64,000 nucleotides of DNA from Candidatus Saccharibacteria bacterium CPR2 (GCA_021404905.1 QWHN01000003.1:23080-87079), one strand, 5' to 3'. Positions 641 to 56,575 are shown, counted from the stretch's first letter. Notes: generated by a model not told the origin, from the letters alone. Made by a program: numbers and translations.

Positions 641-1912
641 ATGAACAGGCTACCAAGAAATACTAAAGTTTATGTTGCCATGAGTGGTGGAGTTGATAGC
701 TCCGTGACTGCCGCGCTTCTCAAAGACCAGGGATATGATCTAACGGGTGTTTATATGAAAAACTGGACCAAAGACTTACCTGGTATGCGTTGCCCGTGGA
801 AAGAAGATGTGGCGGACGCAAAGCGTGTTGCAGTTGGGCTTGGCATCCCTTTTGAGATCTTTGATTTTCAAAAAGACTACAAGCAAAAAGTCGTAGACTA
901 TATGATCGATTCGTTTAAAAAAGGACTTACGCCAAACCCGGACATTATGTGCAACCAAGAGATAAAGTTTAAGTTGTTTTTGGAGACTGCGCTGGAGAAT
1001 GGAGCCGATTTAATAGCCACCGGACACTATGCCAGCCTGAAATCACTGGGCGCTTTGACTGCTAGATCGGCGAAGCCGACTACCCCTCAAAGCTCTCTGG
1101 GATCTACGTCGTCTAAACCTCCAGTACTCACTCATCGTATTGACGTGTACGACTCATTGCGTGCTTCGGTTTATCCTAGTAGCTCACCAGAGCCAATAAT
1201 TTCAGATACAGAAGTAGGAATGTTTATGGCTAAAGATGAGGCCAAAGACCAGACATATTTTTTATATCGCGTCTCTCAGGGGGCTTTGAAAAAAACTTTA
1301 ATGCCAATCGGTGATTATGCGAAATCAGAAGTTCGCGAATTGGCGAAAAAATATAAATTACCTACGGCAAACAAAAAGGACTCTGTCGGTATTTGTTTTG
1401 TGGGCGAGGTTGGGATTAAAGATTTTTTGGCGCAATATGTTAAAACTTCATCTGGCCCGATAGTAGACTCAGAAGGTAAGACAATCGGCCAACATGACGG
1501 CGCGATATTTTATACCATCGGTCAGCGCCATGGCTTAAAAGTTGGAGGCGGTTTCCCTTACTATGTTTGCGGCAAAGACATGAAGACGAATACGGTTTAC
1601 GTAACGCGGGACTTGGACGATGAAAGACTGTGGTCGGATGAGATTAAAATTATCCAAACGCATTGGATTAATTTACCGCCAAAGCCAGGTGAAAAATATA
1701 GAGTTCGTGTCAGACATCAGGGTGAATTAATTGACTGTCATGTTTCATCTCTAGCCAAAAATATCGCCACTCTAAAACTGGAAAAAGAAGTTCGGGCATT
1801 AGCCCCCGGCCAGTCCGCGGTGCTTTACTCGAAGTCGTTAGTGTTGGGTGGCGGAATCATAAATCTTTACAGGAAAACTGTTGTTTCAAGGCACCCCATT
1901 CTGCAAAACTAA
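641..1912 (+). CDS. mnmA: tRNA-specific 2-thiouridylase MnmA, with an unusual Ser/Pro/Thr-rich internal insertion
   Basis: PP-loop VYVAMSGGVDSSV, GHYA and KDQTYFLY motifs. ATG 641 is preferred over the track start 524 because 524-640 is the palindromic repeat. Confidence 0.9.
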   Translation: MNRLPRNTKVYVAMSGGVDSSVTAALLKDQGYDLTGVYMKNWTKDLPGMRCPWKEDVADAKRVAVGLGIPFEIFDFQKDYKQKVVDYMIDSFKKGLTPNPDIMCNQEIKFKLFLETALENGADLIATGHYASLKSLGALTARSAKPTTPQSSLGSTSSKPPVLTHRIDVYDSLRASVYPSSSPEPIISDTEVGMFMAKDEAKDQTYFLYRVSQGALKKTLMPIGDYAKSEVRELAKKYKLPTANKKDSVGICFVGEVGIKDFLAQYVKTSSGPIVDSEGKTIGQHDGAIFYTIGQRHGLKVGGGFPYYVCGKDMKTNTVYVTRDLDDERLWSDEIKIIQTHWINLPPKPGEKYRVRVRHQGELIDCHVSSLAKNIATLKLEKEVRALAPGQSAVLYSKSLVLGGGIINLYRKTVVSRHPILQN

Positions 1913-2297
1913 ATATATGTCTACATATATTTTGAAGCTGAACTTCATCTGGAGTAAATTTACAATCTTGTCTGGGTTGGTCGAAACCAAATAAACCATT
2001 TAGCTCTCGACGCATCTCCCTGCCTATTTGTTCTCTTTCTATTTCAGACTCTTTACTCTCAAGATCCAGTGACCCCATCCTTTTGCCAAATTCAAATGCT
2101 CTTTTCATTAAGCTAGGCAAATTTTCTTCTTCTATGCCATGATCTGCAAAATATGGCATGCAAAACCCCGGCTTGCCAACAGCCTCGGCAACCAACCATT
2201 CTATCTCCTGCTCTATATTCGGATTATTATAAGGATCAAAATCCATGCCAGAATCGGCAATTGTTTCAGTCATCTCTTTAATAGTTATATTAGACAT
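1857..2297 (-). CDS. Hypothetical acidic protein
   Basis: ORF with ATG at 2297 (MSNITIKEMTE...). No recognisable motif. Its 3' end overlaps the mnmA 3' end convergently by 56 nt. Confidence 0.5.
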   Translation of the reverse strand: MSNITIKEMTETIADSGMDFDPYNNPNIEQEIEWLVAEAVGKPGFCMPYFADHGIEEENLPSLMKRAFEFGKRMGSLDLESKESEIEREQIGREMRRELNGLFGFDQPRQDCKFTPDEVQLQNICRHIFSFAEWGALKQQFSCKDL

Positions 2298-2374
2298 CGA
2301 GAATAATACTCTCAAATACACCAAAGTCAATAGTTATTGATAATTGGCTGAAATTCGGCTACAATACCTCTGAT

Positions 2375-4273
2375 ATGAACGCTCACGAAATTCGCAGGAT
2401 CTATTTAGATTTTTTTAAGCAAAAAAATCACGCTATTTTACCTCGCACTACATTAGTGCCTCAAAACGACCCCACAACTTTGTTTACTGGTTCTGGGATG
2501 CAACCGATGTTGCCATATTTGCTTGGTGATGATCATCCAGAGGGGAAACGTTTGGCGGATTCTCAGACTTGTTTGCGAGCCGAGGATATTGAAGAAGTTG
2601 GGGATAACCGCCATACGACTTTTTTTGAAATGCTCGGCAACTGGAGTCTGGGAGATTATTTCAAGTCAGATCAACTACCTTGGTTTTTTGAGTTTTTGAC
2701 TGATGTAGTGGGACTTGATCCAAACAAACTTTACGTTTCTTGTTTTGCAGGAGACCAGGCTGCCAACATTTCTAAAGACGAAGAATCCGCGCACCTTTGG
2801 CAAAAACTTTTTGAAGACAAAAATGTGAGTGCCGAAATCATAGAGCTGGGCTCAGGCGAAGATGGCGCTAAAAAAGGTATGCAGGGCGGACGCATTTTTT
2901 ATTACGACGCGTCAAAAAACTGGTGGAGTCGAACCGGCGAGCCATCAAAAATGCCTTCAGGGGAACCGGGCGGGCCAGACAGTGAAGTTTTTTATGAGTT
3001 TAGTGAGATAGAGCACGACACAGCTTATGGTGAAAACTGCCACCCCAACTGCGATTGCGGCAGATATTTGGAAATTGGCAACTCCGTTTTTATGGAATAT
3101 ATCAAGCAAGATGATGGAAAATTGGTACATTTGCCGAAAAAAAACGTGGATTTTGGCGGAGGTTTGGAGCGTATCGCGGCGGCATCTTTAAACACTCCTG
3201 ATGTATTTAAAATCAGTTTGCTTTGGCCGATTGTTCAAAAGCTCGAAGAAGTATCCGGCCAAAAATATGAAGATCACCAGGAAAGCATGAGAGTAATTGC
3301 CGATCATTTACGGGCAGCTACATTTTTAGCGGTTGATGGCGTAATGCCCAGCAATAAGCAACAAGGCTACGTAATGCGTCGGTTAATGCGCCGGGCGATT
3401 CGGTTTTCTCTTGATTTAAATTTTGATTTTAACGTGTGCGAGCAAGTCGTGCCGGTGGTCGCCGATATTTACCACAATGATTTTCCCGAAGTTGCTCAGA
3501 ATCGAGAAATGATAACGGATGTCATGATTAAAGAAGAAAAGGCGTTTAAGCAGACCTTAAGGAAGGGTTTAAAAGTTTTTGAAAAACTTCTGGCCCGGAA
3601 GCACGAAGTACGAGGCACAAAGCACGGCGAAGTTATATTTAAGCTTTATGACACTTACGGATTTCCAGTTGAATTAACAATAGAAGAAGCACAGAAAAAA
3701 AACATCAAATTGGAAGATGAATGGCAAAAAGATTTTGATAATTTGCTCAAAGAACAACGTGAACGTTCACGTACGGCCACAAAAGGTGAATTTAAAGGTG
3801 GACTAGAAGGTTCTAACCCCATGCATAAGAAATATCACACTGCTACCCATCTGTTATACCGTGCTTTGAGGTTAGTCTTGGGCGATCACGTTTACCAACG
3901 AGGCAGTAATATTACTGAGGAAAGATTAAGATTTGATTTTTCCCATTCGGAAAAAATGACGGATGAAGAAATCAAAAAAACCGAAGATATTGTTAATAAA
4001 CAGATTAAAAATGACCTGCCGGTAAGGTGGGTAGAAATGAACACCAAAGAGGCTCAAGATCAAGGCGCGCGCGGACATTTTGGCGAGAAATACGGCGAAA
4101 CCAGCAAGGTTTACATAATGGGTGATGAGAAGAATCCGTTTAGCATGGAGCTATGCGGAGGGCCGCATGTAGATCATACCGGCGAATTATCAGAAGGCGA
4201 TAAAAAATTTAAAATAGTAAAAGAACAATCATCTTCAGCCGGAATTCGCAGAATTAAGGCGGTTTTGGAATAA
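2375..4273 (+). CDS. alaS: Alanine--tRNA ligase, short form lacking the C-terminal C-Ala domain
   Basis: Class-II core (FTGSGMQPM; WSLGDYF). Editing-domain metal motifs HTATHLLYRAL (HxxxH) and CGGPHV (CxxxH). Only 632 aa; the protein ends just after the editing domain. Confidence 0.9.
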   Translation: MNAHEIRRIYLDFFKQKNHAILPRTTLVPQNDPTTLFTGSGMQPMLPYLLGDDHPEGKRLADSQTCLRAEDIEEVGDNRHTTFFEMLGNWSLGDYFKSDQLPWFFEFLTDVVGLDPNKLYVSCFAGDQAANISKDEESAHLWQKLFEDKNVSAEIIELGSGEDGAKKGMQGGRIFYYDASKNWWSRTGEPSKMPSGEPGGPDSEVFYEFSEIEHDTAYGENCHPNCDCGRYLEIGNSVFMEYIKQDDGKLVHLPKKNVDFGGGLERIAAASLNTPDVFKISLLWPIVQKLEEVSGQKYEDHQESMRVIADHLRAATFLAVDGVMPSNKQQGYVMRRLMRRAIRFSLDLNFDFNVCEQVVPVVADIYHNDFPEVAQNREMITDVMIKEEKAFKQTLRKGLKVFEKLLARKHEVRGTKHGEVIFKLYDTYGFPVELTIEEAQKKNIKLEDEWQKDFDNLLKEQRERSRTATKGEFKGGLEGSNPMHKKYHTATHLLYRALRLVLGDHVYQRGSNITEERLRFDFSHSEKMTDEEIKKTEDIVNKQIKNDLPVRWVEMNTKEAQDQGARGHFGEKYGETSKVYIMGDEKNPFSMELCGGPHVDHTGELSEGDKKFKIVKEQSSSAGIRRIKAVLE

Positions 4274-4281
4274 AATCAAAA

Positions 4282-4356
4282 ATTAGGAAGTAGGAATCAG
4301 CAATTAGAAACTAGCGTTTTCAAAAACTAAATCCTAGTTTCCAATTGCTATTTCCC
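4282..4356. repeat. Degenerate copy of the TAGGAA/TAGAAA-word palindromic intergenic repeat (family A)
   Basis: GGAATCAGCAATTAGAAACTAG ... CTAGTTTCCAATTGCTATTTCC forms a roughly 22-bp imperfect hairpin just after the alaS stop. The word content matches the copies at 16811, 41365, 47638 and 62705. Confidence 0.7.
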
Positions 4357-4533
4357 GTCTTTATCCCCTTTTAAACACACCTTTGTGGAAGTAAAACAAA
4401 ACAGATTGAACTGATGACTGTTTGCAGTCCGAGCAGAGCGAGGACAAGTTCCGCAAGTTCAGTATGTTTTGGTGTAACTGGAACAAAGACAGTTGTTTGA
4501 ACTGGGGCGATACTTTTGGTAAAAGTACAAGCG

Positions 4534-4646
4534 ACAACTCTTACGCTTTTTTATGAGCTAAGGTACAATGTTATAGATGATATACGATAAAATAAAGGCC
4601 AAAGTTAAATCCCGTCAATCTGAGAATTCCAGGTATATCGTGTCTC
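4534..4646 (+). repeat. Direct repeat DR-A: orphan copy of the ftsA promoter region and first ~24 codons
   Basis: Hand alignment to 7893-8005 shows 109/113 identical positions. It encodes MIYDKIKAKVKSRQSENSRYIVS, then diverges into a stop. Confidence 0.9.
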
Positions 4647-4770
4647 CGCTCTCATAGGGATAAGCCCTAAGAGTAGCAGTGATCTCCTTTTGCTAGTTGA
4701 ATGGCGATCAAGCATTATAATTCTAAAGTGTCATGCGGATAATTATAGTGGGGTCGGTTGGAGTAAATTG

Positions 4771-6501
4771 ATGTCTAAAAGAATTAACATTTTACTTAAG
4801 AGATATAAAAATAGGCCAGAGAGCCACCCGACAATAATACTAGGGCAATTTGAGAGAGTCGGCTCTACTTATGTATTAGATACATATGAAAAGACAAATA
4901 TCGTTCACAATGAACCGTATAAGCAATTAGTTCCTACGGAATGGCCTATTTCATGTAGATATGATGACCAGCTTTCAACTATTGATGATTTTTTACTAGA
5001 TAAAAAAATCAGTTTGGAACATAAATATTGGTTGTATAATTTTGTATTGTCGCGATACTCCCCAGGCTCACAGGTGCTGAAAGAAACGAGCCTGCATCTT
5101 GCCCTTCCACAATTTCTCGAGTTATTCCCATATCACAAGCTAAAAGTGTTATCTAGGAATCCGCTTGGCATTGTTTCATCTTTTAAACGAAATGATCTTT
5201 ATGAGTTATGGAAATACGATAAAACGCGAGCAAGGCTAGACATACAAATAAAATCCGGAGCTGATAAATATTCAAGATTAACGTGCTTTACCAACAATGG
5301 ATCTCTATGGGATGAAAAACTGATGTGGCTAATTGGCCTAAATTCAATAATTTTATCTTGCAATTTAGCTAATATGGTATATGACACCGAATATTATGAT
5401 GATTTAATCAAACAATCTAACCCGACTAATTTAAAATTTAAAAATAAGGACAAAGAAGATTCTATATTTACCACAAACATTTGCAAAGAATACGATGATT
5501 TTGACAGAAGATTAACAAACACCGAGATTCGGAGGCTTAAATCCACAGCCGAATCCTGCATAGACTATGTCTATAAAAATTTTAATAAGAAAGAACGCCT
5601 CTTATTTGACAGGATATTTGGTTTCTATTTTTTGGGCAATGAAGCCAATTACACTTCCAAACGCACCCAAAATACCATGCATAGCCCGAGGGTTAACACG
5701 AGTACGCCAGGAAATTACAAAATAGTCGAGCGGGACGAGCTATACAACTATGAAGAAAAATATATACGAATGAAGGGAAGTCAGAATGTGCTATGGGCAA
5801 AGGGCTTGGTTACGAACGAAGCGATGTGTCATTTTCTGAATAATCTCCTGAGTGCGGGTTTTAGGTCGTCATTAAACTATTTGTTAGTTCGAGACAATAT
5901 GCCTCCCGAAAGGGGTGGTAGAATAATTTACAACAAAAGTTCCAACAGATTCGTTATGGTAAAAGGTTTCGAAAAACATCCTGTTTATTGGGTGAGTTGG
6001 TTATGCGCGTCAATATTCGCTAAGTATTGTGGCAGAAAATTACCAACTATCCATCAATGGATGAAGGCGTTCTATGCGAATAAGAGCATACTGATCAATA
6101 ATCAAAACAATCACTCGTATCTACATGATGATGTCGTCCCGACAGGAAAAACCTACAAGGGTTTACCTAAAGACTTCTTTGGTAATTTAAAAGTGTGGTG
6201 TAGAGATTGGGATATTAGTGCGGACAAGATAATGTTATCCAAAAATCTGGCTGGGATATCCTGGAAACATTACTATCACGATAAATACAAAATATGTTCC
6301 GAGAAACCATTCTTAACAAACTCAAGAGTGATTGGTATTCGGCTGGTTACTAGTCAGGCTGTCAGCAAAGAAAGAACAATCTATGGGATCGTCGAAGATC
6401 TAAATGATATAAATGACATCATTGCAAAGTCAGATATACGCACACCTAAAGATGCAAGTAGATTAAATGAAGCAGTGTCCGATATTTTAGATGGCTCGTA
6501 A
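4771..6501 (+). CDS. Fusion protein: sulfotransferase-like N-terminal domain plus FGE/SUMF1 (sulfatase-modifying-factor) like C-terminal domain
   Basis: N-terminal part: PAPS-loop-like QFERVGSTYV and RNPLGIVSSFKR. C-terminal part: HPVYWVSWLCASIFAKYCGRKLPTIHQWMKA and GNLKVWCRDW resemble the FGE-sulfatase core (PV..VSW..A..y..W.G.RLPTE.EW; GNV.EW). ATG 4771 is preferred over track start 4690. Confidence 0.55.
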   Translation: MSKRINILLKRYKNRPESHPTIILGQFERVGSTYVLDTYEKTNIVHNEPYKQLVPTEWPISCRYDDQLSTIDDFLLDKKISLEHKYWLYNFVLSRYSPGSQVLKETSLHLALPQFLELFPYHKLKVLSRNPLGIVSSFKRNDLYELWKYDKTRARLDIQIKSGADKYSRLTCFTNNGSLWDEKLMWLIGLNSIILSCNLANMVYDTEYYDDLIKQSNPTNLKFKNKDKEDSIFTTNICKEYDDFDRRLTNTEIRRLKSTAESCIDYVYKNFNKKERLLFDRIFGFYFLGNEANYTSKRTQNTMHSPRVNTSTPGNYKIVERDELYNYEEKYIRMKGSQNVLWAKGLVTNEAMCHFLNNLLSAGFRSSLNYLLVRDNMPPERGGRIIYNKSSNRFVMVKGFEKHPVYWVSWLCASIFAKYCGRKLPTIHQWMKAFYANKSILINNQNNHSYLHDDVVPTGKTYKGLPKDFFGNLKVWCRDWDISADKIMLSKNLAGISWKHYYHDKYKICSEKPFLTNSRVIGIRLVTSQAVSKERTIYGIVEDLNDINDIIAKSDIRTPKDASRLNEAVSDILDGS

Positions 6502-7056
6502 AATCAAGCATTGGTCAATTATATATTTGCAAATTTCCGGTATTTTATCGTTGTTGCCATTGTGTATCCTTACATCAGTTAAGTCTTTTACCTCATCCAG
6601 CTCATTTGCATCGTGGGCGTCAATAGCTAGCAATTGCGCGAGATTATCTACTTTATGCTTAACTAATCTACTTGTATGAGCTGGTGAGCCCCGACTAGTA
6701 CTTCTCGCGAGTCTTTCTTCTTGTGTCGCGATAACGTTGATAACATAAAAATTACGTTTTTTTAGTTCTTTTACGATTGCTGGAGATCTTACGCCATCTA
6801 CAGCCAAAGGATTTGGTAAATTATCTGAGAAAAAGTATAAAAGACCATTCAATGCAATCAATTCTTCTCTGGCATTCCTGTAGTCGGCGGGGGTAAATTC
6901 TGTTTCTGATGGTCGTGTATTAGCCAAGTGATTTAAAATATATTCCCCGGTATTAATACGACAGTATCCGAATTGTTCCTCTAAAGCACGTGCGATAGTG
7001 GATTTACCGGTCAGTATTTGGCCTGTAAGTAACAGATTTGGTTTGTCTGCGATCAT
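6487..7056 (-). CDS. P-loop nucleotide/nucleoside kinase-like protein
   Basis: Walker A TGQILTGKST. VDGVRSP...VINVIATQEERLARS resembles small adenylate/dephospho-CoA-kinase-like ATPases. Confidence 0.5.
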   Translation of the reverse strand: MIADKPNLLLTGQILTGKSTIARALEEQFGYCRINTGEYILNHLANTRPSETEFTPADYRNAREELIALNGLLYFFSDNLPNPLAVDGVRSPAIVKELKKRNFYVINVIATQEERLARSTSRGSPAHTSRLVKHKVDNLAQLLAIDAHDANELDEVKDLTDVRIHNGNNDKIPEICKYIIDQCLILRAI

Positions 7057-7073
7057 TTGTATATACTTAGAGC

Positions 7074-7508
7074 ATGTTTATAAGGGCTACCTGCTTTTGT
7101 ATTAAAGATTGTAAGGTATTGGTTGTCAAACAAAACTTTCCAGACGTAGACAGGGAATGGTCCCTTCCCGGGGGTAAGGTCGAAGAAAGTGAAACACTAT
7201 TTGAGGCGGTTGTGCGTGAGACAAAAGAAGAAACAGGCGTATTGGTTGAACCTAAGAAATTACTATATATAACGGAATCAATTCAAAAAGAAAAACACAT
7301 ACTACATATATTGATAGCATGCGACTATATTGAGGGAACAACTGGTGTAGGGCTGAAGTTAACTAAGAACGAGAGAATACCTATTGTTAAATTTATTTAT
7401 ATAGAAGAGTTGAAAAAGCTGGGTTTTGCCAACAAATTTATCAATTTAATTGAAACGAATTTTCCGGAACCTGTTTATCGCGGTAAAAAGGAAAATATAG
7501 GTTTGTAG
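7074..7508 (+). CDS. NUDIX hydrolase
   Basis: Nudix box GGKVEESETLFEAVVRETKEETGV (GX5EX7REUXEEXGU). Confidence 0.85.
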   Translation: MFIRATCFCIKDCKVLVVKQNFPDVDREWSLPGGKVEESETLFEAVVRETKEETGVLVEPKKLLYITESIQKEKHILHILIACDYIEGTTGVGLKLTKNERIPIVKFIYIEELKKLGFANKFINLIETNFPEPVYRGKKENIGL

Positions 7509-7532
7509 ATACTGTTCGATAATGTTATAAGT

Positions 7533-7772
7533 ATGTTTATTATGGCAGAAAATACAGGCCAGGATCCAACAGGTATTGATGCAATTTTTTCGGATATAGT
7601 TCACCGAGTTCCAGAACTTTTTGATTATGACGCTCGTCCAAGGGAAGTTCCATCTGAGCTTTTTGAACACCCCCCCAGGGGGCACATTGCTTTTAACGGT
7701 GGTTACGAGCAAGGCAAAGAGCTACCTTCGTGTAAAGATAATGGAGAACAAGATCAAGTCATAGAAGAATGA
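7533..7772 (+). CDS. Small acidic hypothetical protein
   Basis: 79-codon ORF, the last gene of the islet. No motif recognised. Confidence 0.35.
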   Translation: MFIMAENTGQDPTGIDAIFSDIVHRVPELFDYDARPREVPSELFEHPPRGHIAFNGGYEQGKELPSCKDNGEQDQVIEE

Positions 7773-7892
7773 TAAAAATATCCAATCAGAAAAACCAAAG
7801 CAACAATCTCTACATAAAGTGCCCGATTCCTTATCAAAAAATACATAAAAACCGCATTACAAAGCATTGTTTTTAAGTACAAAATCACAGTC

Positions 7893-8005
7893 ACAACTCT
7901 TACGCTTTTTTATGAGCTAAGGTACAATGTTATAGATGATATTCGACAAAATAAAGACCAAAGTTAAATCCCGGCAATCTGAGAATTCCAGGTATATCGT
8001 GTCTC
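7893..8005 (+). repeat. Direct repeat DR-B: functional ftsA promoter region and 5' end
   Basis: Partner of 4534-4646. Contains a TACAAT -10-like hexamer and the real ftsA start at 7936. Confidence 0.9.
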
Positions 8006-9210
8006 TCGATGTTGGTACCGAGTTTGTTAAAGCACTGATTGGGAGGGTTGACGGGGACGCAATAGAAATTATTGGCGTTGGCCGCAAACATCAGGAACTG
8101 GCGGATATGCACTCTGGGGCCATTGCGGACATCAGCGCGGTGGTTGCGAATTGCGAGAGCGCTTTGACGCAGGCCGAAAAACAAGCCGGGGTTAGTGCCA
8201 GGCAAACTGTTATCGGAGTAGCTGGTGAACTCGTAAAAGGAACAAATGGCACGATTCGTTATAAGCGCGCTAATCCTAAGCAGGAAATAACCATGGACGA
8301 AATGGAGTATATTGTAAAAAAAGTCCAGGAACGAGCTCAAAAACAGGCTAAGAAGCAATTAAATTGGGAACTCGGTATAAATGATGTTGACATTCGTATG
8401 GTCAACAGCGCGATTGTTTCAATACAGATTGACGGATATAAAGTCAGCAACCCCATTGGTTTTCAGGGTCGAGACGTAGCGATCCAGCTTTACACCGCTT
8501 TCGCGCCAATGATTCACATCGGAGCGCTTGAAAGAACCGCGACGGATCTCGACCTGGATTTAATAGCAATCGCAGCCGAACCGTTCGCGGTAGCACGCTC
8601 AGTTATCGGAGATGATGCCAGTAGCAATTTTAGCGCGGTTTTGATTGACGTAGGAGGCGGAACAACAGATATAGCCGTGGTTAATGACGGTGGTGTCGAA
8701 GGTACAAAGATGTTTGGAATCGGCGGCAGAAGCTTTACGAAAAATATCGCCAGTGAACTGAATCTAAGTTTTGGGGTGGCTGAAGAATTAAAGTTAAGGT
8801 TAAGTTCAGGAAAACTTGAAAAATCTCAGGAAGAAACAGCGCTTAAAGCCGTTCAAAAAACTCTTGCCGTTTGGCTGAGTGGAGTCGAGTTGGCGCTGAG
8901 TGAGTTTGAAAGCCTGGATCGTTTACCGACAAAAATTTTACTGTGCGGCGGCGGCGCTAGTCTAAAAGCCTTGGTTGATGCCCTAAAACAGAAACAGTGG
9001 CACATAAATCTGCCTTTTAGCAGGCAGCCCGACATACAGTATATCCAGCCGGAACAGGTAATTAAAATTACAGACACGACGGGTAAAGTCACGGATCATA
9101 GCTACATTACGCCAATGGGCTTGTTGAGAGTGGGCCATGATACAATACAAACCAGCAATGACACCAGTTCATCAATAACAGAGAAACTTAATCGAATGCT
9201 TAGAATATGA
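7936..9210 (+). CDS. ftsA: Actin-like cell-division protein FtsA
   Basis: SLDVGTEFVKALIG (phosphate-1), VLIDVGGGTTDIAV (phosphate-2), MFGIGGRSFTKNIA..AEELK, and a C-terminal amphipathic tail EKLNRMLRI. Confidence 0.75.
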   Translation: MIFDKIKTKVKSRQSENSRYIVSLDVGTEFVKALIGRVDGDAIEIIGVGRKHQELADMHSGAIADISAVVANCESALTQAEKQAGVSARQTVIGVAGELVKGTNGTIRYKRANPKQEITMDEMEYIVKKVQERAQKQAKKQLNWELGINDVDIRMVNSAIVSIQIDGYKVSNPIGFQGRDVAIQLYTAFAPMIHIGALERTATDLDLDLIAIAAEPFAVARSVIGDDASSNFSAVLIDVGGGTTDIAVVNDGGVEGTKMFGIGGRSFTKNIASELNLSFGVAEELKLRLSSGKLEKSQEETALKAVQKTLAVWLSGVELALSEFESLDRLPTKILLCGGGASLKALVDALKQKQWHINLPFSRQPDIQYIQPEQVIKITDTTGKVTDHSYITPMGLLRVGHDTIQTSNDTSSSITEKLNRMLRI

Positions 9211-9361
9211 GATCATTTACCAATTATCATTTAGCATTTAGCAATAATTTTGCATTATACAGCTGCCAATGGTCGCATCTTTTTAGAAAGAAAACTGAAA
9301 ATTGCCAATTTAATATTAACTGTAAACTGACAATTGTAAATTTGAGCGAGCAGGGAAAGCG

Positions 9362-10975
9362 ATGAAGAAGGATGTAATCTACATTGATGCTGATGATGAC
9401 ATTACGGCGATAATTGACAAAGTCAAGGGGTCTTCAGCTAAGATCATCGCGCTTGTTCCGCCAAAGCGCTCTACTGTCTTGCAAAGCTTGGTTAATATGA
9501 AGCTTTTAAAGCGCACCGCGGATGACGCTTCAAAAAGGATTGTATTAATTACCAACGAACAATCGCTTTTACCTTTAGCCGGCGGAATCGGGCTATACGT
9601 GGCGCGAAATTTACAATCCAAGCCATACATTCCTGAGGCAAAAGGATATGAACCTTCAGCGAAAGAGAACGTAATAGATGAAAGCGGAGAATTGGATGAG
9701 AGTCATAAGGTCCTGTCCCATAAACCATCCCAGACACAAGCTGTGCCTCCAAAGGCTCCAACAAGCTTCAGCAAAGACAAACCAGCTTCACCAAAGAAAA
9801 AAAGAATTCCAAGTTTTGAGAAGTTCCGCACTAAGTTATTTCTGATAATTGGGGGAGTGCTATTACTTGCCATTTTATGGTTCGTCGCATTTTGGGTAAT
9901 GCCTAAAGCCAATATTGTAATAAAGGCGCAAACGTCCAGAATTGAGATTAACGAATCATTTAATGTTGGTAAGAATTTGGAAACAAATAACGAGAAGAAC
10001 ACGTTCAAAGCCGAGGAACAAACGTTATCTAAAACAGTTACGGAAAAGTTTAAGGCTACTGGGGAAAAGAATATTGGCAACAAGGCGTCTGGAACTATTA
10101 CGGTTCAAAACTGCGATTCCTCAAGCTCAATAGAAGTTCCAGCAGGCACGACTTTTACTTCTTCGGGCGGTTTAAGTTTTGTCAGTTCTCAAGCGGCTAC
10201 GGTTTCGGGCGGTTCATTCTCCGGCGGTTCTTGTAGCGCTCCTGGAGAAAATAATGTCACTGTAACTGCCGATAAGCCCGGCGGAGAATATAATCTGGCT
10301 AGTGGCACGTCATACACATTGTCGGGTCAAAGCGGGTTTGTAACAGGCTATGGCGGGCAAATGAGTGGCGGCACGACTCAAATGGCCAAGGTCATTACCC
10401 AAGCTGATGTGGATGAGGCTAAAAACAAGCTTAGCCAGCAAAATAACGAAGAAGCAAAACAAGAACTATCCGCCAAATTTAATAAGGATTCCACTTATAT
10501 TCTAGGGGCTACCTTTACGGTTACCAGTTCACAGCCCACGGTTAGTCCAGCAGTTGACACACAAGCGGATGAGGGCACCGCGACTATGCAAATAACTTAT
10601 ACTATGCTTGCGCTTAGCAAAGACGAGTTTAACTCTTATCTTGATTTTAAAATTGAAGGCAAGATTGATAAAAACAAACAAGAAATATACGAAAATGGCA
10701 TTGAAAACATCAAACTATCACTAACCAGCCAAGACGGTTCAAAAACTTTTCTGTTTTCCGCTAAAGCAAATGCTTATGTCGGGCCAAAGTACGATAAAGA
10801 CGAGATTGCCAAAGAAATCAGCGGCAAACGATTCAGCGAGGTGATTAAAATACTGGAGAGCAGGCCAGGTGTTAATTCCGCGGATGTAAAATTCTCTCCT
10901 TTCTGGGTAAGTAAAGCCCCGCGGCCAAGCAGGATAAATATTGAGTTTGAAGTTTCCGAACACAACTTGCAGTAA
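9362..10975 (+). CDS. Hypothetical single-pass membrane protein with a large Ser/Thr/Gly-rich extracytoplasmic region
   Basis: Soluble N-domain, one TM helix (LFLIIGGVLLLAILWFVAFWVMP), then beta-rich sequence (ASGTITVQN...VPAGTTFTSSGGLSF). Sits directly after ftsA. Confidence 0.6.
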   Translation: MKKDVIYIDADDDITAIIDKVKGSSAKIIALVPPKRSTVLQSLVNMKLLKRTADDASKRIVLITNEQSLLPLAGGIGLYVARNLQSKPYIPEAKGYEPSAKENVIDESGELDESHKVLSHKPSQTQAVPPKAPTSFSKDKPASPKKKRIPSFEKFRTKLFLIIGGVLLLAILWFVAFWVMPKANIVIKAQTSRIEINESFNVGKNLETNNEKNTFKAEEQTLSKTVTEKFKATGEKNIGNKASGTITVQNCDSSSSIEVPAGTTFTSSGGLSFVSSQAATVSGGSFSGGSCSAPGENNVTVTADKPGGEYNLASGTSYTLSGQSGFVTGYGGQMSGGTTQMAKVITQADVDEAKNKLSQQNNEEAKQELSAKFNKDSTYILGATFTVTSSQPTVSPAVDTQADEGTATMQITYTMLALSKDEFNSYLDFKIEGKIDKNKQEIYENGIENIKLSLTSQDGSKTFLFSAKANAYVGPKYDKDEIAKEISGKRFSEVIKILESRPGVNSADVKFSPFWVSKAPRPSRINIEFEVSEHNLQ

Positions 10976-11021
10976 TAGTTATGCCTGCTGAATTAATTTG
11001 AGAATATAGAGATTTTGATCA

Positions 11022-11432
11022 ATGCAATTTAATAACGCTATAGCACTGGATGTGGGAGACAAGAGAATCGGCATCGCCAGGGTCAATAAAATTGCCCAGA
11101 TTGTCCGTCCGCTAGCAACAATAATTCGCGAGGGGGATGAATTTAAGCAATTAAAGGACATTATTTCTCGAGAGAGCATTGATTTAATTGTAATAGGCCG
11201 GCCTCGCAACATGAAGGGCGAAGAGACTTTGCAAACCGCGAGAATCGAAGAATTTGTTAGATTATTACCAGAAAATGGGATAAATATAAAAATTGTTTTT
11301 CAGGACGAATCTCTAACGTCTGTCCAAGCTGAAAATTTGCTAAAACAAGAGAAAAGAGATTATAACAAAAGTGATATAGATATGAGGGCAGCGTGCATCA
11401 TTCTGCAGGATTTCCTGGAAAGTAACATTTAA
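11022..11432 (+). CDS. ruvX: Putative pre-16S rRNA nuclease / Holliday-junction resolvase-like YqgF
   Basis: N-terminal IALDVGDKRIGIA motif and a ~135 aa size typical of YqgF/RuvX. Confidence 0.8.
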   Translation: MQFNNAIALDVGDKRIGIARVNKIAQIVRPLATIIREGDEFKQLKDIISRESIDLIVIGRPRNMKGEETLQTARIEEFVRLLPENGINIKIVFQDESLTSVQAENLLKQEKRDYNKSDIDMRAACIILQDFLESNI

Positions 11433-11437
11433 AAATT

Positions 11438-12466
11438 ATGGTAAGTTTTTTTAAATCCAAGGTTTTTATTATCGTGCTAGTCACCCTAACTATTTTAGGC
11501 ATCGGTGCAATAGGCGCATGGTATGGTGTAAACAGCTGGTACAAAAATTCTCTTGAGCCGAGAGATAAAATGGGCAGAGATGTTGTGGTAACAATAGAAA
11601 GTGGCCAAGGAGTGAGCGACATTGGGGACCTTCTTGAAAATAAGGCGGTTATTATAAGTTCAAAAGCATTTGGATGGTATGTATCACGCCAAAACGTTAA
11701 AGATCAACTTCAAGCAGGCACATACCGTTTAAGTCCGGCTTATTCAGTCCCCGAAATCGTCGAAATACTGGCAAATGGACGCGTGGATGTTAAATCAGTA
11801 ACTTTTACGCCCGGAATGCGCCTTGATCAAATAGAAGCCGTGCTAAAGGAGGAATTTGAAATATCTAAAGTAAGAGAAGCGCTAAATAAAAGATATGACC
11901 ACCCTGTGTTTAGTTTTATACCTGAAGGTTCGACCCTTGAGGGCTACATTTATCCGGACACTTATCAGATAAATAGCGAATCAAAACCAGAGGATGTTGT
12001 TAAGATGGCCTTAGATGAATTTGCTGCGAATCTGGAAGAGCCAATTAAACAAGGCATAGAAAAACAGGGTTTGAATATTCATCAGGCTGTTATTATCGCT
12101 TCGATCGTTCAGCAGGAAGTTCCGGATTATAAAACTCAGATTACGGTCGCGCAGGTTTTCTTAAAGCGATTTAGAGACCGAATGCCTTTGGGGGCCGACC
12201 CTACATTTAAGTATGCGGCTGCGATAACTGGAGCGGAATCAAGCCCTGATCTTGATTCGCCCTATAACACGAGAAAAAATACCGGCTTGCCACCCGGGCC
12301 TATTGGTAATTTTTTGATCGATGCGCTGCGAGCAGTATCCAGCCCAGACAACACCGATTATCTTTATTTTGTATCTGGCGATGATGGAATTACCAGATTT
12401 TCCAAAACGGAAGAAGAACATAACGTACTGGTGGAACAGTATTGCAAAGAGCTCTGTTCGCAGTAG
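11438..12466 (+). CDS. mltG: Endolytic murein transglycosylase MltG (YceG-like)
   Basis: N-terminal TM, AGTYRLSP, YNTRKNTGLPPGPIGNF and YLYFVSGDDG motifs. Confidence 0.85.
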   Translation: MVSFFKSKVFIIVLVTLTILGIGAIGAWYGVNSWYKNSLEPRDKMGRDVVVTIESGQGVSDIGDLLENKAVIISSKAFGWYVSRQNVKDQLQAGTYRLSPAYSVPEIVEILANGRVDVKSVTFTPGMRLDQIEAVLKEEFEISKVREALNKRYDHPVFSFIPEGSTLEGYIYPDTYQINSESKPEDVVKMALDEFAANLEEPIKQGIEKQGLNIHQAVIIASIVQQEVPDYKTQITVAQVFLKRFRDRMPLGADPTFKYAAAITGAESSPDLDSPYNTRKNTGLPPGPIGNFLIDALRAVSSPDNTDYLYFVSGDDGITRFSKTEEEHNVLVEQYCKELCSQ

Positions 12467-12499
12467 GATTGACATAAGAATTTTAATATTTTAGTAGAT

Positions 12500-12761
12500 A
12501 TGTTCTAACGGGGGTAGGACAGTGTGGAAAAACAATTGACTCCAGTCTCCGGCTTTGTTAAAATCACAAGCGTCTATCGGGTACTTTGGCAGTGGGAGCT
12601 TACCTTTGTTGCAGAATCAGAGCTGGTGGCACCAATGTCATCTGATAGCCTTCCGAGAAAGGTCGACACGAGAATAGATATGCGAGGTCGGCATTTCTCT
12701 GTCCCGATAACATCGGGAGCAAGACCAAGTATCGGAAGCGGTTCCAGCGGTAACGCGGAAC
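12500..12761 (+). promoter_or_regulatory. Structured, GC-enriched 5' leader of the LysM-CHAP hydrolase gene; possible ydaO-type (c-di-AMP) riboswitch
   Basis: About 260 nt are noncoding, with 32/60 G+C at 12661-12720, and four overlapping artefactual ORFs on both strands. AATCAGAGCTGGTGGCACCAAT resembles the ydaO core AUCAGAGCGGGGGACCCAAU. The hairpin GTTCCAGCG-GTAA-CGCGGAAC abuts the ATG at 12762. Confidence 0.4.
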
Positions 12762-13970
12762 ATGGAGAAGACAATTATTAGTACGAATATAAAGGCGAAA
12801 TCCGCTGTGGTTGGTCGCATACAAAAAAGTACTAAGAAAATAAACCGCTCTGCATTGAGCGTTGAAAAAACTTCTCGAATAATCAAGAATACTGTAACTA
12901 AAGACAAGCTCAGCATTGTTGCCAAATTTACCAAAAACCATTTGCTTGCGATTGGGCAAATAGCTCTCTTTGTATTTGTTGTAGTTTTAGTTACTGTCGG
13001 TTCTCAATCTAAAGAAAGCGGTGGCGCAGTAAAATCCGCTGACCCGACCATTGTTGGAGGTTACGGCGGCGTCAGGACGGTCGATGAAGTAGCTGCTGCC
13101 AGTATTGCGGCGGACATCGCCCAATCCGCGGAATTGATAGTCGCTGATAACGTTTCAAATCTGGCGGATTCAAGAAGCGCGCAAGTTGAGTTCTCTACGT
13201 CGCAAGGCAACTATTTATCTAAACCCCATCTTGTGCCAACTACAGGCGCCATTGGCAACAGCGTAACAACTTATGTGGCTGTTGAAGGTGACACTATTGA
13301 CTCAATAGCACAGAAGTTTAATATAACCAGTGACACAATCCGTTGGGCTAATGATATTGTGGGCAATAATGTTAGCCCCGGCAGAAGTCTAAAAATTCTT
13401 CCTGTCAGCGGTGTGTTGCATACTGTTACTGAAGGTGAAACTGCTGAAGCTATCGCTGAAAAATACAGGGCTAATTCAAAAGAAATAATTTCCTTTAATG
13501 ATGCTGAAATTGCCGGACTGAGAACCGGGCAACAGATTGTTGTACCAAACGGCTTACAACCAGCTCCTGCTCGACCAGCTTACTTTAGTAATGCTTCGAG
13601 CTATGTTGCGGGATTTGGCTTTGGTTCAGAACCTCTTTATGGGGGAAATGGTTATAGCTACGGATATTGTACTTGGCATGCTGCTAATCGTCGTGCCGAA
13701 ATTGGCCGTCCTGTCCCGAGGAATCTAGGCAACGCTATTACCTGGGCATCTCTATCGAGGTTGGCTGGTTTCGAAGTAGGATCGACTCCAAAAGAAGGAG
13801 CGGTTCTTTGGCATAGAAACATTGGGGGGCTGGGCCATGTTGGGTTTGTAGAAAGCATAAATCCTGATGGATCGTTGCGTGTTTCAGACATGAATTATCC
13901 TATTTGGGGAACTGTCACCTATCGAACCGTAAATGCAGACGAATTCGGAAATTACCTGTTTATCTATTAA
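12762..13970 (+). CDS. Secreted peptidoglycan hydrolase: two LysM domains plus C-terminal CHAP domain
   Basis: LysM repeats YVAVEGDTIDSIAQKFNITSDTIRWAN and HTVTEGETAEAIAEKYRANSKEIISFND. CHAP motifs YGYCTWHAANRR and GHVGFVESINPDGSLRVSDMNY. Confidence 0.85.
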   Translation: MEKTIISTNIKAKSAVVGRIQKSTKKINRSALSVEKTSRIIKNTVTKDKLSIVAKFTKNHLLAIGQIALFVFVVVLVTVGSQSKESGGAVKSADPTIVGGYGGVRTVDEVAAASIAADIAQSAELIVADNVSNLADSRSAQVEFSTSQGNYLSKPHLVPTTGAIGNSVTTYVAVEGDTIDSIAQKFNITSDTIRWANDIVGNNVSPGRSLKILPVSGVLHTVTEGETAEAIAEKYRANSKEIISFNDAEIAGLRTGQQIVVPNGLQPAPARPAYFSNASSYVAGFGFGSEPLYGGNGYSYGYCTWHAANRRAEIGRPVPRNLGNAITWASLSRLAGFEVGSTPKEGAVLWHRNIGGLGHVGFVESINPDGSLRVSDMNYPIWGTVTYRTVNADEFGNYLFIY

Positions 13971-14080
13971 TTAATTTTGTAAAACAAAAACGCTGATAAT
14001 GAGGAAGCGACTTTATGGAGACGAAGTCGCTTCTTTTCTTTATAGCTTTAAACTTTACACTTTCAACTTTATACTGATGA

Positions 14081-15370
<1,290 letters not shown>

Positions 15371-16810: not shown

Positions 16811-16933
16811 TATGGAGTATAGAGTATAGATGTTAGGAAACAGCAATTGGGAAATAGAAAATAGTATATTTTTAAAAACTAATTCCTAGTTTCTAATTCC
16901 CAGTTCCTATTTTCTAGTTTCTATGTTTCTAAA
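16811..16933. repeat. TAGGAA/TAGAAA-word palindromic intergenic repeat (family A), well-conserved copy
   Basis: AGGAAACAGCAATTGGGAAATAGAAAATAGTATATTTTTAAAAACTAATTCCTAG... Its reverse complement aligns over ~100 nt with 41365-41525 and 47638-47733. It fills the gap between convergent genes. Confidence 0.85.
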
Positions 16934-35272: not shown

Positions 35273-35875
35273 TTACAGCCCTACTGAATCTGCGCCATAA
35301 GTGGCTTGAGCTGTCGTGAATTTATCGAACACCAATTGATCGATCAGACCTTGCCTTGAGAAAGACGAAAACTCCATGTATGATTTCGCTTTTTTAGCAG
35401 CTTGTTCATTCCAGTCAGCACCCGCATTGTCTGCGCCATACACAGCGTCTGCATGAGAAAATTTGTCAAATTCCAGTTGTGCGACCAAACCATCACGAGA
35501 AAATCCTGCAAAATCGAGATAACTCTTTGCTTTACTAACAGCATTTTTCTGGCTTGTTGTTTCTGTTGGCTTTGCCGGTTCTTGAGGTTTTGGCTCTTCT
35601 GCTGGCTTCTGCTCTGTTTTTGTTTCCGCTTCTGTAGCCTGTTGTGCAGTTTCTTGAGGTGTTTCTTCTTTGCTTGCTGTATTATTGGTCTGAGGCGTGC
35701 TAGGACTAGCAAGCGAAGCGATTACCACAATGCCCACCAAAATGCTTACTCCTATTTTGGCTCCTTTTGCCCAATTAGTGTACTTCCACATTAGATACAA
35801 ACCTACTGGGAAAAAGAAAATTAGCAATAAGATTATTGCTGGTGTTTTTTCGTACCATTTAGTATTATTTGACAT
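35273..35875 (-). CDS. Membrane-anchored protein with two Ltp-type repeats (phage superinfection-exclusion lipoprotein family)
   Basis: ATG 35875 (MSNNTKWYEKT...), a TM hairpin and a Pro/Glu/Thr linker. Two repeats follow: KAKSYLDFAGFSRDGLVAQLEFDKFSHADAVYGAD and KAKSYMEFSSFSRQGLIDQLVFDKFTTAQATYGAD. The longer track start 36169 runs into repeat DNA. Confidence 0.7.
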   Translation of the reverse strand: MSNNTKWYEKTPAIILLLIFFFPVGLYLMWKYTNWAKGAKIGVSILVGIVVIASLASPSTPQTNNTASKEETPQETAQQATEAETKTEQKPAEEPKPQEPAKPTETTSQKNAVSKAKSYLDFAGFSRDGLVAQLEFDKFSHADAVYGADNAGADWNEQAAKKAKSYMEFSSFSRQGLIDQLVFDKFTTAQATYGADSVGL

Positions 35876-36079
35876 TTTTACTCCTTTGCTTTGGTTAATT
35901 ATATCGCCCGTTTGCGAGAACCAAAAAGCCCGCCACGAGCGGCAGCCGAAGCCACCCAATGCCGTTTCCAGCATTGACCACAGAAAGAAGTACTCATGAC
36001 GAGCTGTTTCTTTCTGTGGATTTGTAAACCATGCCAAGCTATTGCTTGGTTTAGGTTTATGAATTGATTGTACTATTTG

Positions 36080-36290
36080 CACCGCTGTTTTGCCAGATAT
36101 AGCGAAGCGCACCCGACCAGAAAACACCCTTTTCCAAATCCTAAAAAATCTCGGCGGGGGAAATCTCAAAAAATATGCAAAGGGTTTTTCTGGCGGGGCG
36201 CAGCGGGCAGACTTGCCCGCTAGGCGGCGGGGCTGAGCTTACACTTCAGCCTTAGCACTTCGTGCTAAAATAGGTTCTAGCCTTTTCGTA
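36080..36290 (-). repeat. GC-rich repeat (family B), copy Y, inverted relative to copy X
   Basis: 36144-36173 is the exact reverse complement of 33337-33366. Flanks align too (ccagaaaaaccctttgcat vs ccagaaaaagctttagcat; ggaaaagggtgttttc vs ggaaaaggtttttgtc). Confidence 0.85.
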
Positions 36291-41270: not shown

Positions 41271-41364
41271 AAGCGCAGCAAACATATCTTATAATCATAA
41301 GCGACTTATGTGACTCGGAGCTTTAGCTCGTGCACATGGGTGGGCGTGCATGAGCCCACAACAA

Positions 41365-41525
41365 ATTAGGAAACAGCAACTAGCAATTAGAAACTAGAAA
41401 ATAGGAACTAGTTTTTAAAACATACTATTTTCTATTTCCTAATTGCTGTTTCCTAATTTCTATACTCTATACTCTATTTCCCAGTTTCTAACTTCTATTT
41501 TCTAACCAATAATTCCCATTTTCTT
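41365..41525. repeat. TAGGAA/TAGAAA-word palindromic intergenic repeat (family A)
   Basis: AGGAAACAGCAA...TTGCTGTTTCCT inverted arms. The core CATACTATTTTCTATTTCCTAATTGCTGTTTCCTAATTTCTATACTCTATACTC is near-identical to 47669-47730 and to the reverse complement of 16811-16870. Confidence 0.85.
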
Positions 41526-47590: not shown

Positions 47591-47733
47591 AATCTGGAAT
47601 CTAGAATCTAGTAAAAAGTTATCAAGTTCATAAAGTTGGAGATAGCAATTAGCAACTAGGAATTAGTTTTTAAAAATATACTATTTTCTATTTCCTAATT
47701 GCTGTTTCCTAATTTCTATACGCTATACTTCAT
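47581..47733. repeat. TAGAATC tandem run followed by a family A palindromic intergenic repeat
   Basis: tagaatctagaatctggaatctagaatctag (47581-47611), then GCAATTAGCAACTAGGAATTAGTTTTTAAAAATATACTATTTTCTATTTCCTAATTGCTGTTTCCTAATTTC. Confidence 0.85.
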
Positions 47734-47735
47734 AC

Positions 47736-48278
47736 TCAATCCGTTTCTGGAGTAACTGTGTATTGAATCGTATCCGTAAATTGTCCGGCGGCTGTCGCGA
47801 GAGTGGCTTTGACGCCGTATGTCACGGTTGTTACATCACCAGACGTAAAGGGCCCGTTCGCGTCTTTGAGCAACACGTTTGACGTAGTTACACCAACAAA
47901 ATCGCTTGAACCGTCCGTATTGTAACCCCAAGTGTCGTTTGCCAAAGCCGCCGGAGATCCATTAGCGCTGGCTGGAATATTAAAACTCCCGTTTACGAGA
48001 TTGGTGTTCGCGTCCTTATCTTTTATGTAGAGTTTATAACCAATGACGTCGCTGCTGGTAACGGTCACTGTGTCGGTAGAAGTCGACAAAACGCCGGATG
48101 TCGACGGGGTGAGGTTGATTGTAATTGAGCCGGAAGTCGTAAGAGAAATAGAGGTTTCATCGCCATAAGGCACATTGGCGTTATAGATTCCGCTGCCATA
48201 TGGATTCGCATTTACATTGCCAATAAAAAAAACGGTTACTACTAGAATAAATGACAGGGTTAGAACCAACGCACGCAT
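47736..48278 (-). CDS. Secreted Thr/Ser-rich beta protein, small fimbrial-subunit-like paralogue
   Basis: Signal peptide MRALVLTLSFILVVTVFFIGNVNA. The C-terminal block AAGQFTDTIQYTVTPE is related to the C-termini of the 48344 and 49458 proteins. Confidence 0.55.
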   Translation of the reverse strand: MRALVLTLSFILVVTVFFIGNVNANPYGSGIYNANVPYGDETSISLTTSGSITINLTPSTSGVLSTSTDTVTVTSSDVIGYKLYIKDKDANTNLVNGSFNIPASANGSPAALANDTWGYNTDGSSDFVGVTTSNVLLKDANGPFTSGDVTTVTYGVKATLATAAGQFTDTIQYTVTPETD

Positions 48279-53812: not shown

Positions 53813-53877
53813 TCATTGATAATTTATTGAAAACTGTAAACTGTTAATTGAAAAGTGTTTTTGCACAGCAAAAACGA
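53813..53877 (+). promoter_or_regulatory. AT-rich upstream module (family E) ending at the 5' end of the tRNA-like sequence
   Basis: TCATTGATAATTTATTGAAAACTGTAAACTGTTAATTGAAAAGTG... aligns at about 75% with 55315-55377 upstream of tRNA-Gly and partly with 9300-9345. Confidence 0.5.
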
Positions 53878-54115: not shown

Positions 54116-54144
54116 ATCTTGTAGTTACTTTAAACTAGTTGTGA

Positions 54145-55876: not shown

Positions 55877-55918
55877 TTATATTAGCTCGCCTGAAAGATT
55901 AAATATTTCAACCAGGTG

Positions 55919-56538: not shown

Positions 56539-56575
56539 GTAACTTGTCCGATAGCTGAAATTCCTTGGCTAGTAA

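Follow-up and report, generated by a model that had tools for sequence, protein, structure and literature searches.

How an essential cell-division gene comes to possess two 5' ends, with four unrelated genes lodged between them, is the question raised by the alaS-ftsA region of Candidatus Saccharibacteria bacterium CPR2. The region lies in a stretch of 64,000 nt, read on one strand (GCA_021404905.1 QWHN01000003.1:23080-87079), referred to here as the window. An original prediction described an islet upstream of ftsA bounded by direct repeats, and attributed it either to an element that integrates into the 5' end of a gene and supplies a replacement 5' end, or to a duplication-mediated insertion. 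The finding is real, more than ordinary, and explicable by known recombination processes, and the second of these options fits it better than an element-borne 5' end. The explanation we favour, with a confidence a little better than even, is that the islet is an insertion-duplication allele made by recombination (Campbell-type or break-repair) at an alaS-ftsA hotspot, with no self-encoded mobility. Relatives of the window FtsA in GTDB genomes all belong to Saccharibacteria/Saccharimonadales (61-65% identity), and the exact fusion protein encoded by the islet is found on an NCBI record under the name Candidatus Saccharibacteria bacterium CPR2.

A repeat search recovered the two copies at 4534-4646 and 7893-8005, both on the + strand, 113 nt long and spaced 3359 nt apart, with 109/113 positions matching (96%) as had been aligned by hand. 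This pair is the sole repeat of its kind within the window. The four mismatches (left/right: 4584/7943 A/T, 4588/7947 T/C, 4598/7957 G/A and 4615/7974 T/G) all fall in the coding part and span 32 nt, leaving identical blocks of 50 and 31 nt on either side, and the 43 nt 5' of the ATG are identical between copies. Each copy contains this 43-nt ftsA promoter region followed by 23 codons and 1 nt; the predicted promoter and 5' end are thus present, and the count of 24 codons is corrected. As had been described, the right copy, which provides the working ftsA promoter and 5' end, runs into an intact ftsA (7936-9210, + strand; 424 aa, Pfam FtsA) with 97% amino acid identity to the FtsA of islet-free strains (P0001). 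The left copy carries a -10-like TACAAT and opens a truncated ftsA' stub (4577-4657, + strand) of 26 codons, MIYDKIKAKVKSRQSENSRYIVSPLS, which reads MIYDKIKAKVKSRQSENSRYIVS from 4577, then PLS, and stops at 4655-4657. An example of a 31-mer specific to the left copy is GATATACGATAAAATAAAGGCCAAAGTTAAAT. Local alignments of the outer flanks of both copies scored at the shuffle mean, so homology is sharply bounded on both sides, and a longer, degraded duplication reaching past the 113 nt was rejected on this ground. An 8-mer common to the upstream regions of both copies, AAGTACAA, was non-significant, and inspection by eye for a dif/Xer-type site within the repeat gave no convincing 11-6-11 match.

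The site was compared with six near-identical islet-free Logan contigs of sister strains (L085-L090, FtsA P0001 type), with a more distant contig (L091, FtsA 90% identical), and with 80 GTDB loci (L004-L083), 76 of which hold both alaS and ftsA; in total about 90 genomes were checked for use of the ftsA site. In a protein search P0001, 97% identical to the window FtsA, was present on many Logan contigs, and JGI metagenomes searched with the window repeat gave 0 matches, placing the species only in Logan and NCBI data. In the sister strains, window positions 4284-4646 (4511-4646 in L085) and 7893-14000 (7893-13682 in L090) map to one continuous stretch; all six contigs have a single copy of the 113 nt and lack the islet, and L091 likewise has one copy. 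Because both flanks map onto a single-copy sister stretch, the window carries an insertion of 3,246 bp (4647-7892) together with a 113-nt target duplication. Islet genes were found between alaS and ftsA at 0/76 loci, and a duplicated ftsA 5' end at 0/80 GTDB loci and in none of the six sister contigs or L091. One GTDB locus (L047) has a single distant NUDIX match, which lies outside the alaS-ftsA gap. The empty site that the original prediction expected in relatives thus exists, with one 113-nt copy and no islet, in near-identical strains and in 76 species. An ancestral islet lost in the relatives was rejected for the deep history of the locus on the basis of these single-copy sites, the outlying G+C content of the islet and the presence of related cassettes at other loci.

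A misassembly had been named as one of the outcomes that would undo the finding, and would consist of an empty-site chromosome joined to a separate molecule (for example a circle) carrying the islet and one repeat, or of a misjoin in a strain mixture. The islet is present at 100% identity in independent Logan assemblies from three sequencing runs. A contig from another run and another assembler (L001) passes unbroken from the islet through the right repeat into 4.5 kb of chromosome, also at 100% identity. In SRR8954568, one contig (L084) stops 30 nt (k-1) into the left repeat, and a second (L002) extends from the last 30 nt of the left repeat to the first 30 nt of the right repeat; these contig ends are exactly those expected of a k=31 graph at a true two-copy repeat with shared stretches of 50 and 31 nt. 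Four differences separate the two copies, unlike collapsed or duplicated assembler repeats, and the empty site occurs on no contig bearing the ftsA or alaS allele of this strain. On the other side, the left repeat is crossed whole by no Logan contig, so that the left junction depends on the deposited assembly and graph logic, and the k=31 graphs on which Logan contigs are built look alike at the shared stretches for an integrated islet and for a mixture of circle and empty site, and cannot tell the two apart. Taken together, we consider an artefact very improbable.

A TATAAT-type -10 is conserved upstream of ftsA in about 75 species, some 8-20 nt before the ATG, a placement which suggests that ftsA mRNAs in Saccharimonadales are leaderless or near-leaderless. 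An extended form of this -10 (TGGTATATAAT-like) is strongly conserved 8-20 nt before the ftsA start across the 80 GTDB loci. The window counterpart, TACAAT, agrees with this placement and, with 7 nt between its end and the ATG, the duplicated 113 nt plausibly hold the whole ftsA promoter and a near-leaderless start. The duplication extends from 7 nt upstream of the predicted -35 up to the edge of the conserved LDVGTE core of FtsA, the N-terminal tail before this edge being poorly conserved between species. On the + strand no terminator was found between the end of the stub (4657) and the first islet gene (4771), and the left promoter copy would therefore probably add transcription into that gene, which encodes the fusion protein. 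A hairpin at 4649-4673 was rejected as a terminator (z = -1.2 against shuffles, no T run). The sequence TATAGT lies about 20 nt 5' of the ATG of the fusion gene, and also in the nearest related cassette (L096), which suggests that the fusion gene has its own promoter as well.

At 4609/7968, 4612/7971, 4614/7973 and 4633/7992 the two copies share a state that is not found in sister contigs L085 and L086. At three of the four mismatches between the copies the sister strains have the base of the right copy, and at the fourth that of the left copy; relative to these strains, 3/4 of the differences between stub and right copy are derived in the stub, against a single synonymous change in the right copy. 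Because lineage-specific states are shared by both copies, the left copy is a copy of the host lineage's own ftsA allele and not as a 5' end brought by a roaming element. The idea that an element had supplied a replacement 5' end is not supported, given these states and the lack of any other attachment at ftsA among the genomes compared. The 90% identity cluster of FtsA has only two members, P0001 and one other, presumably the window protein, and a protein search found no native FtsA that starts MIYDKIKAKV.

The islet lies within a mosaic tract of about 14 kb (685-15013), delimited by alignment to the islet-free strains. To the left of the tract, with the window extended by L084, there are 0 mismatches in 5,955 nt against the sister strains. 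A sharp breakpoint follows at 685, inside mnmA, with 64 mismatches in the next 350 nt. Divergence within the tract reaches about 27% where alignment is possible, the hyp157 stretch being unalignable; identities are about 73% in the 3' part of mnmA, 85-98% in alaS and 80-90% in the ftsA core, where mismatches are mostly at third codon positions. The divergence fades patchily, the last mismatch being at 15,013 with none from there to 16,867, and outside 685-15,013 the window strain and L085-L090 are 100% identical. The window mnmA open reading frame (ORF) has an extra low-complexity insert of about 48 aa compared with the 375-aa version of the sister strains. The position of the islet amid a divergent tract in a clonal frame indicates that strains gain or lose it by homologous recombination in the flanking core genes, irrespective of which of them received the tract. 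Almost 8 kb of the clonal frame contain no substitution, and the four mismatches between the copies would therefore have to predate the exchange of the tract, and either the duplicated structure had aged in a donor lineage or two slightly different alleles built it. Saccharibacteria are naturally competent (PMC10633639) and transformation leaves patchy mosaic donor segments (PMC13344027); natural transformation was probably the vehicle here.

The spacer into which the islet falls is itself variable. The gene order mnmA-alaS-ftsA-p537-ruvX-yceG is conserved in the 80 GTDB loci wherever the contig reaches, with alaS (2375-4273, + strand; 632 aa, Pfam tRNA-synt_2c and tRNA_SAD) forming the left flank in the window. 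Across the 76 species the alaS-ftsA gap is bimodal, measuring 47-141 nt or about 1 kb, with a maximum of 6.2 kb. The class of about 1 kb, roughly half of the species, holds a minus-strand gene of about 300 aa. Three different spacer contents occur among otherwise identical strains: the islet, an insert of about 950 nt with a 162-aa membrane-like ORF in L086-L090, and yet another content in L085. The insert in L086-L090 lies inside a REP-like palindromic intergenic element found just 3' of alaS (4280-4345 in the window), which in the sister strains forms the left-hand limit of the variable spot. Copies of this element (families D1-D3), with arms made of 7-nt TAGNAAN periods, are found at 4280-4345, 16826-16927, 41363-41508, 47628-47743 and 62701-62780. 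The locus therefore shows what characterises a recombination hotspot, namely variable content between syntenic core genes and a diverged tract in a clonal background.

No integrase had been seen, and a wider search for mobility genes gave the same result. Four genes fill the islet, and no recombinase or transposase was found in it or within 10 kb on either side; a Pfam search of ten further mid-size ORFs of the window, which was not exhaustive and did not extend to the rest of the genome, yielded no recombinase, and tblastn probes with a Streptomyces integrase and an IS30 transposase had no match in the window. Terminal inverted repeats are absent from the islet, the best end-to-end inverted match being 6 nt and below the shuffle mean. 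A transposon or insertion sequence was rejected, given the lack of a transposase domain and of terminal inverted repeats and a duplication of 113 nt that far exceeds target duplications of 2-15 bp. Of the features that define an integrative element, the bounding direct repeats are present, and an element-encoded recombinase and a recurrent target site are absent. Of the features that define an insertion-duplication, two are present: foreign DNA lies between copies of a host segment that is single in the empty allele, and both copies are of the recipient-lineage type.

The four genes between the repeats are those that had been predicted, as judged from Pfam, AlphaFold and Foldseek. The first (4771-6501, + strand) encodes a 576-aa protein in which Pfam recognises only a stretch resembling FGE-sulfatase (residues 391-436; FGE, formylglycine-generating enzyme). 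A profile of 22 homologues searched against PDB matches formylglycine-generating enzymes and CalU17. The AlphaFold model (pLDDT 77, pTM 0.82) gives Foldseek matches to CalU17, STF9, TPST and the curacin sulfotransferase, with probabilities of 0.9-0.99 and weak E-values. In tblastn the protein matches an annotated Streptomyces sulfotransferase, Streptomyces homologues being also annotated as members of the SUMF1/EgtB/PvdO family. It is reasonable to predict, at the level of fold, an N-terminal sulfotransferase domain joined to a C-terminal FGE-type domain. Convergent with this fusion gene, and overlapping it by 15 nt, is a gene for a 189-aa P-loop kinase-like protein (6487-7056, - strand; Pfam AAA_18, 1.5e-8), whose position and orientation are unchanged in the homologous cassettes that have it. 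A 144-aa NUDIX hydrolase (7074-7508, + strand; Pfam NUDIX, 1.7e-15) follows, and then a small protein (7533-7772, + strand; 76-79 aa). Homologues of the small protein occur in three cassettes (L092, L096 and L103) and share a conserved C-terminal GHIAFxGxF motif; no family for it was found in Pfam, NCBIfam, PHROGs or PADLOC.

In PADLOC the NUDIX protein matches the candidate PDC-S07 over its full length (2.3e-13), and the kinase weakly matches the kinase part of 'dCTPase' (3e-4). The fusion protein has no counterpart among PADLOC, PHROGs and NCBIfam models. No complete described defence system was matched, the sole PADLOC candidate match being the NUDIX protein, to a single-gene model. From domain content we would guess at a role of the cargo in nucleotide metabolism or defence. 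The G+C content of the islet, 0.369, is the lowest of any 3.2 kb in the window (all 3.2-kb stretches, 0.416 +/- 0.015), and that of other cassettes matches their hosts; the low value fits a recent acquisition from a relative of lower G+C. Together with the occurrence of the cassette at other loci, it bears out the view that the genes are foreign to the alaS/ftsA backbone.

The fusion family is small, with 24 clusters among 5.8 billion proteins. A taxonomic distribution discordant with the host had been anticipated for the islet proteins, and was not found: source-named close homologues are all from Saccharibacteria, with 38-48% identity apart from the window protein itself. The neighbours of the fusion gene are conserved, and comprise the convergent AAA_18 kinase, a house-cleaning NTPase (NUDIX, or HAD plus NTPase_I-T, or Ham1) and often the GHIAF protein. 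Three more distant cassettes (L092, L093 and L095, at about 10001-15300) have two tandem dCTP-deaminase-like genes (PF22769) between fusion gene and kinase, and in these Ham1 or NTPase_I-T plus HAD hydrolases replace the NUDIX protein, keeping to a nucleotide-pool theme. Around five homologous cassettes (L092, L093, L095, L098 and L103) no flanking repeats of at least 20 nt were found, and flanking repeats were rejected as a general property of the cassette. The L095 cassette adjoins type IV secretion system (T4SS) conjugation genes and an Mrr nuclease, inside a conjugative element. That of L099 lies 290 nt downstream of tRNA-Trp (38-113), and the interval contains, at about 305-325, a 19-nt duplicate of the tRNA 3' end, agtcctgtctcccctgcca; such a copy is the usual scar of integrase-mediated island insertion.

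Distant full-length homologues of the fusion protein (25% identity) are encoded on Streptomyces plasmids beside a NUDIX gene whose product is 39-55% identical to the cassette NUDIX. The fusion-NUDIX pair is thus kept between Saccharibacteria (L092 13452-13886) and Streptomyces plasmids; on one of these (NZ_CP108689, L101 7131-14548) it stands beside a radical SAM protein, a dTMP kinase and a second NUDIX. Since Actinobacteria are the hosts of cultivated Saccharibacteria, transfer of the cassette between the episymbiont and host lineages is conceivable. A phage origin was rejected, as tblastn with the fusion protein gave no match in 50,697 phage records or IMG/VR, and a plasmid origin likewise, as tblastn gave only the 25%-identical Streptomyces plasmid homologues.

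The nearest cassette, L096 (48% identity, same four-gene layout), is a 3,136-nt Logan contig from ERR3200795. Its first 17 nt equal its last 17 nt, which under k=31 logic implies a 43-nt perfect repeat at both ends, and the ends (1-73 and 3091-3136) map head to tail on one 100-nt stretch of another contig (L107 2428-2527) and partly on L105 and L106 (L106 3874-3932). JGI soil metagenome contigs show this intergenic element of about 100 nt in two or more contexts, and the repeat has no Rfam or tRNA match. L096 may represent a cassette integrated with an imperfect duplication of about 100 nt, a circle together with a chromosomal site, or a cassette between two copies of a dispersed repeat, and is a possible second case of the arrangement at ftsA. 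A bolder proposal is that the four-gene unit is a new nucleotide-directed conflict or defence module, to which sister versions add two dCTP-deaminase-like genes, shared with actinobacterial host plasmids and without an integrase, which duplicates about 100 nt of its target, the ftsA and L096 insertions being independent examples; we regard this as speculative and rather improbable.

For the islet at ftsA, the favoured insertion-duplication explanation supposes that a four-gene cassette of 3,246 bp was acquired horizontally and placed after ftsA codon 23, and that it is flanked on both sides by 113 nt of the host lineage itself, which comprise a minimal promoter, a near-leaderless start and the variable N-terminal tail. 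The right copy would keep the essential ftsA fully functional, and the left copy would be a dead stub whose promoter points at the cassette with no terminator between them. The structure would come from recombination and not from an islet-encoded enzyme, by one of two routes: Campbell-type integration, in which circularised DNA with the cassette adjoining a 113-nt segment enters the chromosome by a single crossover, or a one-step break-repair or strand invasion event that retained the displaced resident strand. The allele would then have been kept and passed between strains by homologous recombination via the flanking core genes, probably after natural transformation. Only events restoring the promoter and N-terminus of an essential gene would survive, and such viability selection may explain why the duplication starts near the -35 and ends at the LDVGTE border. 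Several points weigh against this explanation. No circular intermediate, donor allele or junction read was seen, the nearest cassette homologue is only 48% identical, and the route that first joined the host 113 nt to a foreign cassette is conjecture. The direction of the tract exchange is ambiguous, as the islet-free strains may instead be its recipients. Four mismatches within 32 nt between identical ends would also be consistent with two alleles joined into a hybrid by site-specific or homologous crossover, and the conjugative element of L095 and the att-like remnant of L099 keep integrase-driven transfer possible for the cassette family.

These last observations belong to an alternative in which the islet is the remnant or satellite of an integrative element, moved by a tyrosine or serine recombinase acting in trans or since lost, with an attP that carried the ftsA promoter and 5' end and with the repeats as attL and attR. 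Direct repeats that exactly bracket foreign DNA and restore the target gene are what it predicts, and mismatches clustered between two identical end blocks are seen in hybrid att sites. The microcin H47 island has the same anatomy without a recombinase of its own (PMC3191183), related cassettes lie beside tRNA-Trp with its 3'-end copy and beside T4SS conjugation genes, and the L096 ends join head to tail on one site of about 100 nt. The explanation is weakened because both copies are of the host-lineage allele type, so that attP would need to have been captured from the same lineage; because nothing is integrated at the ftsA 5' end in about 90 other genomes; and because the poorly conserved FtsA N-terminal tail would make a poor general attachment site. 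It must also account for the lack of a recombinase in the islet, within 10 kb or in the ten further ORFs, and for 3.2 kb filled by four cassette genes that are found without flanking repeats at five other loci. We consider it unlikely, although well short of negligible.

About as doubtful is a one-step target-site duplication during illegitimate insertion, through staggered breaks about 113 nt apart, end joining that captured foreign DNA, or template switching in replication, followed by divergence in place. The derivation of both copies from the same allele, the sharp homology boundaries and the lack of mobility genes are all consistent with it, and three derived changes in the stub against one synonymous change in the right copy fit relaxed constraint on the stub. 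There is no recognisable microhomology, the donor sequence being unknown, and we know of no bacterial process that regularly gives target duplications of 113 nt. The bounds of the duplication, 7 nt 5' of the predicted -35 and at the FtsA core border, look selected or structured, though viability selection could explain them. This alternative also overlaps the favoured insertion-duplication explanation, the route alone being different.

Comparison with known systems places the islet between several of them. In dusA-specific islands and prophages, found in >200 genomes, a tyrosine integrase lies beside an att site with a 21-bp consensus (Farrugia et al. 2015, PMC4482086). The islet resembles these in interrupting a housekeeping gene at its 5' end, in its imperfect direct repeats and in the retention of a usable promoter and 5' end. 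It differs in that the 5' end at dusA is replaced by element-derived sequence, whereas the 113 nt of the islet are the host lineage's own allele, and in that the islet has no integrase and its site was used once among about 90 genomes. The microcin H47 island of E. coli is 13 kb long, with RecA-independent excision and integration shown experimentally and with widespread att sites (Azpiroz et al. 2011, PMC3191183; PMC5426353). It is similarly small, with long imperfect direct repeats made of identity blocks and no recombinase of its own, but its mobility has been shown, whereas the islet is known from sequence alone and its repeat consists of unique sequence from an essential gene.

Core-gene-flanked hotspots, in which homologous recombination replaces one accessory or defence islet with another, share with this locus the variable cargo between syntenic core genes and the divergent tracts in a clonal frame. 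Their cargo is usually in the spacer, whereas the islet is inside the ftsA coding start, offset by a duplication. Insertion-duplication mutagenesis is familiar from pneumococcal genetics, and homology-facilitated illegitimate recombination (HFIR) has been described in naturally competent bacteria (PMC3240628). Both leave heterologous DNA between direct duplications of a short host targeting segment and need no mobility enzyme, as at ftsA, but they are laboratory or induced outcomes and the islet is natural. To our knowledge, no natural, fixed insertion-duplication has been described in an essential gene in which the duplication just rebuilds the promoter and N-terminus. With respect to cargo, the islet resembles nucleotide-depleting or nucleotide-modifying defence genes (PDC-S07 and kinase-dCTP deaminase proteins) in the full-length match of its NUDIX protein, and sister cassettes add dCTP-deaminase-like genes and house-cleaning NTPases; unlike these systems, the window cassette has no deaminase, and PDC-S07 is a single-gene candidate only.

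If the favoured explanation is correct, a genome-reduced, competent CPR bacterium can gain accessory genes without mobile-element machinery, and uptake is possible even inside an essential cell-division gene when a short duplication restores the promoter and 5' end. The locus would provide a natural insertion-duplication allele and define the alaS-ftsA spacer as a recombination hotspot of Saccharimonadales. The near-clonal pair of strains with and without the islet is a ready comparison for the effect of the cassette, which is rare, uncharacterised and conserved as a unit, and a reasonable candidate for functional studies of nucleotide metabolism in episymbionts or of their defence against phages. 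Most worth attention are this cassette and the possible second duplication case in L096.

Elsewhere in the window, a LOOT RNA (RF03000, 82.6 bits) lies at 35941-36057 on the - strand, and is overlapped by a mechanically called ORF (35273-36169, - strand) with C-terminal Lipoprotein_Ltp domains. A 42-nt segment at 53876-53917 is 83% identical to the 5' half of tRNA-Phe (54143-54184), 267 nt upstream of it and without an ARAGORN call. It may represent a pseudogene or else a tRNA, with a GAT-like anticodon loop, that escaped detection. Another long direct repeat, of 103 nt and 78% identity, is formed by 55883-55985 and 56540-56642, which lie 657 nt apart.

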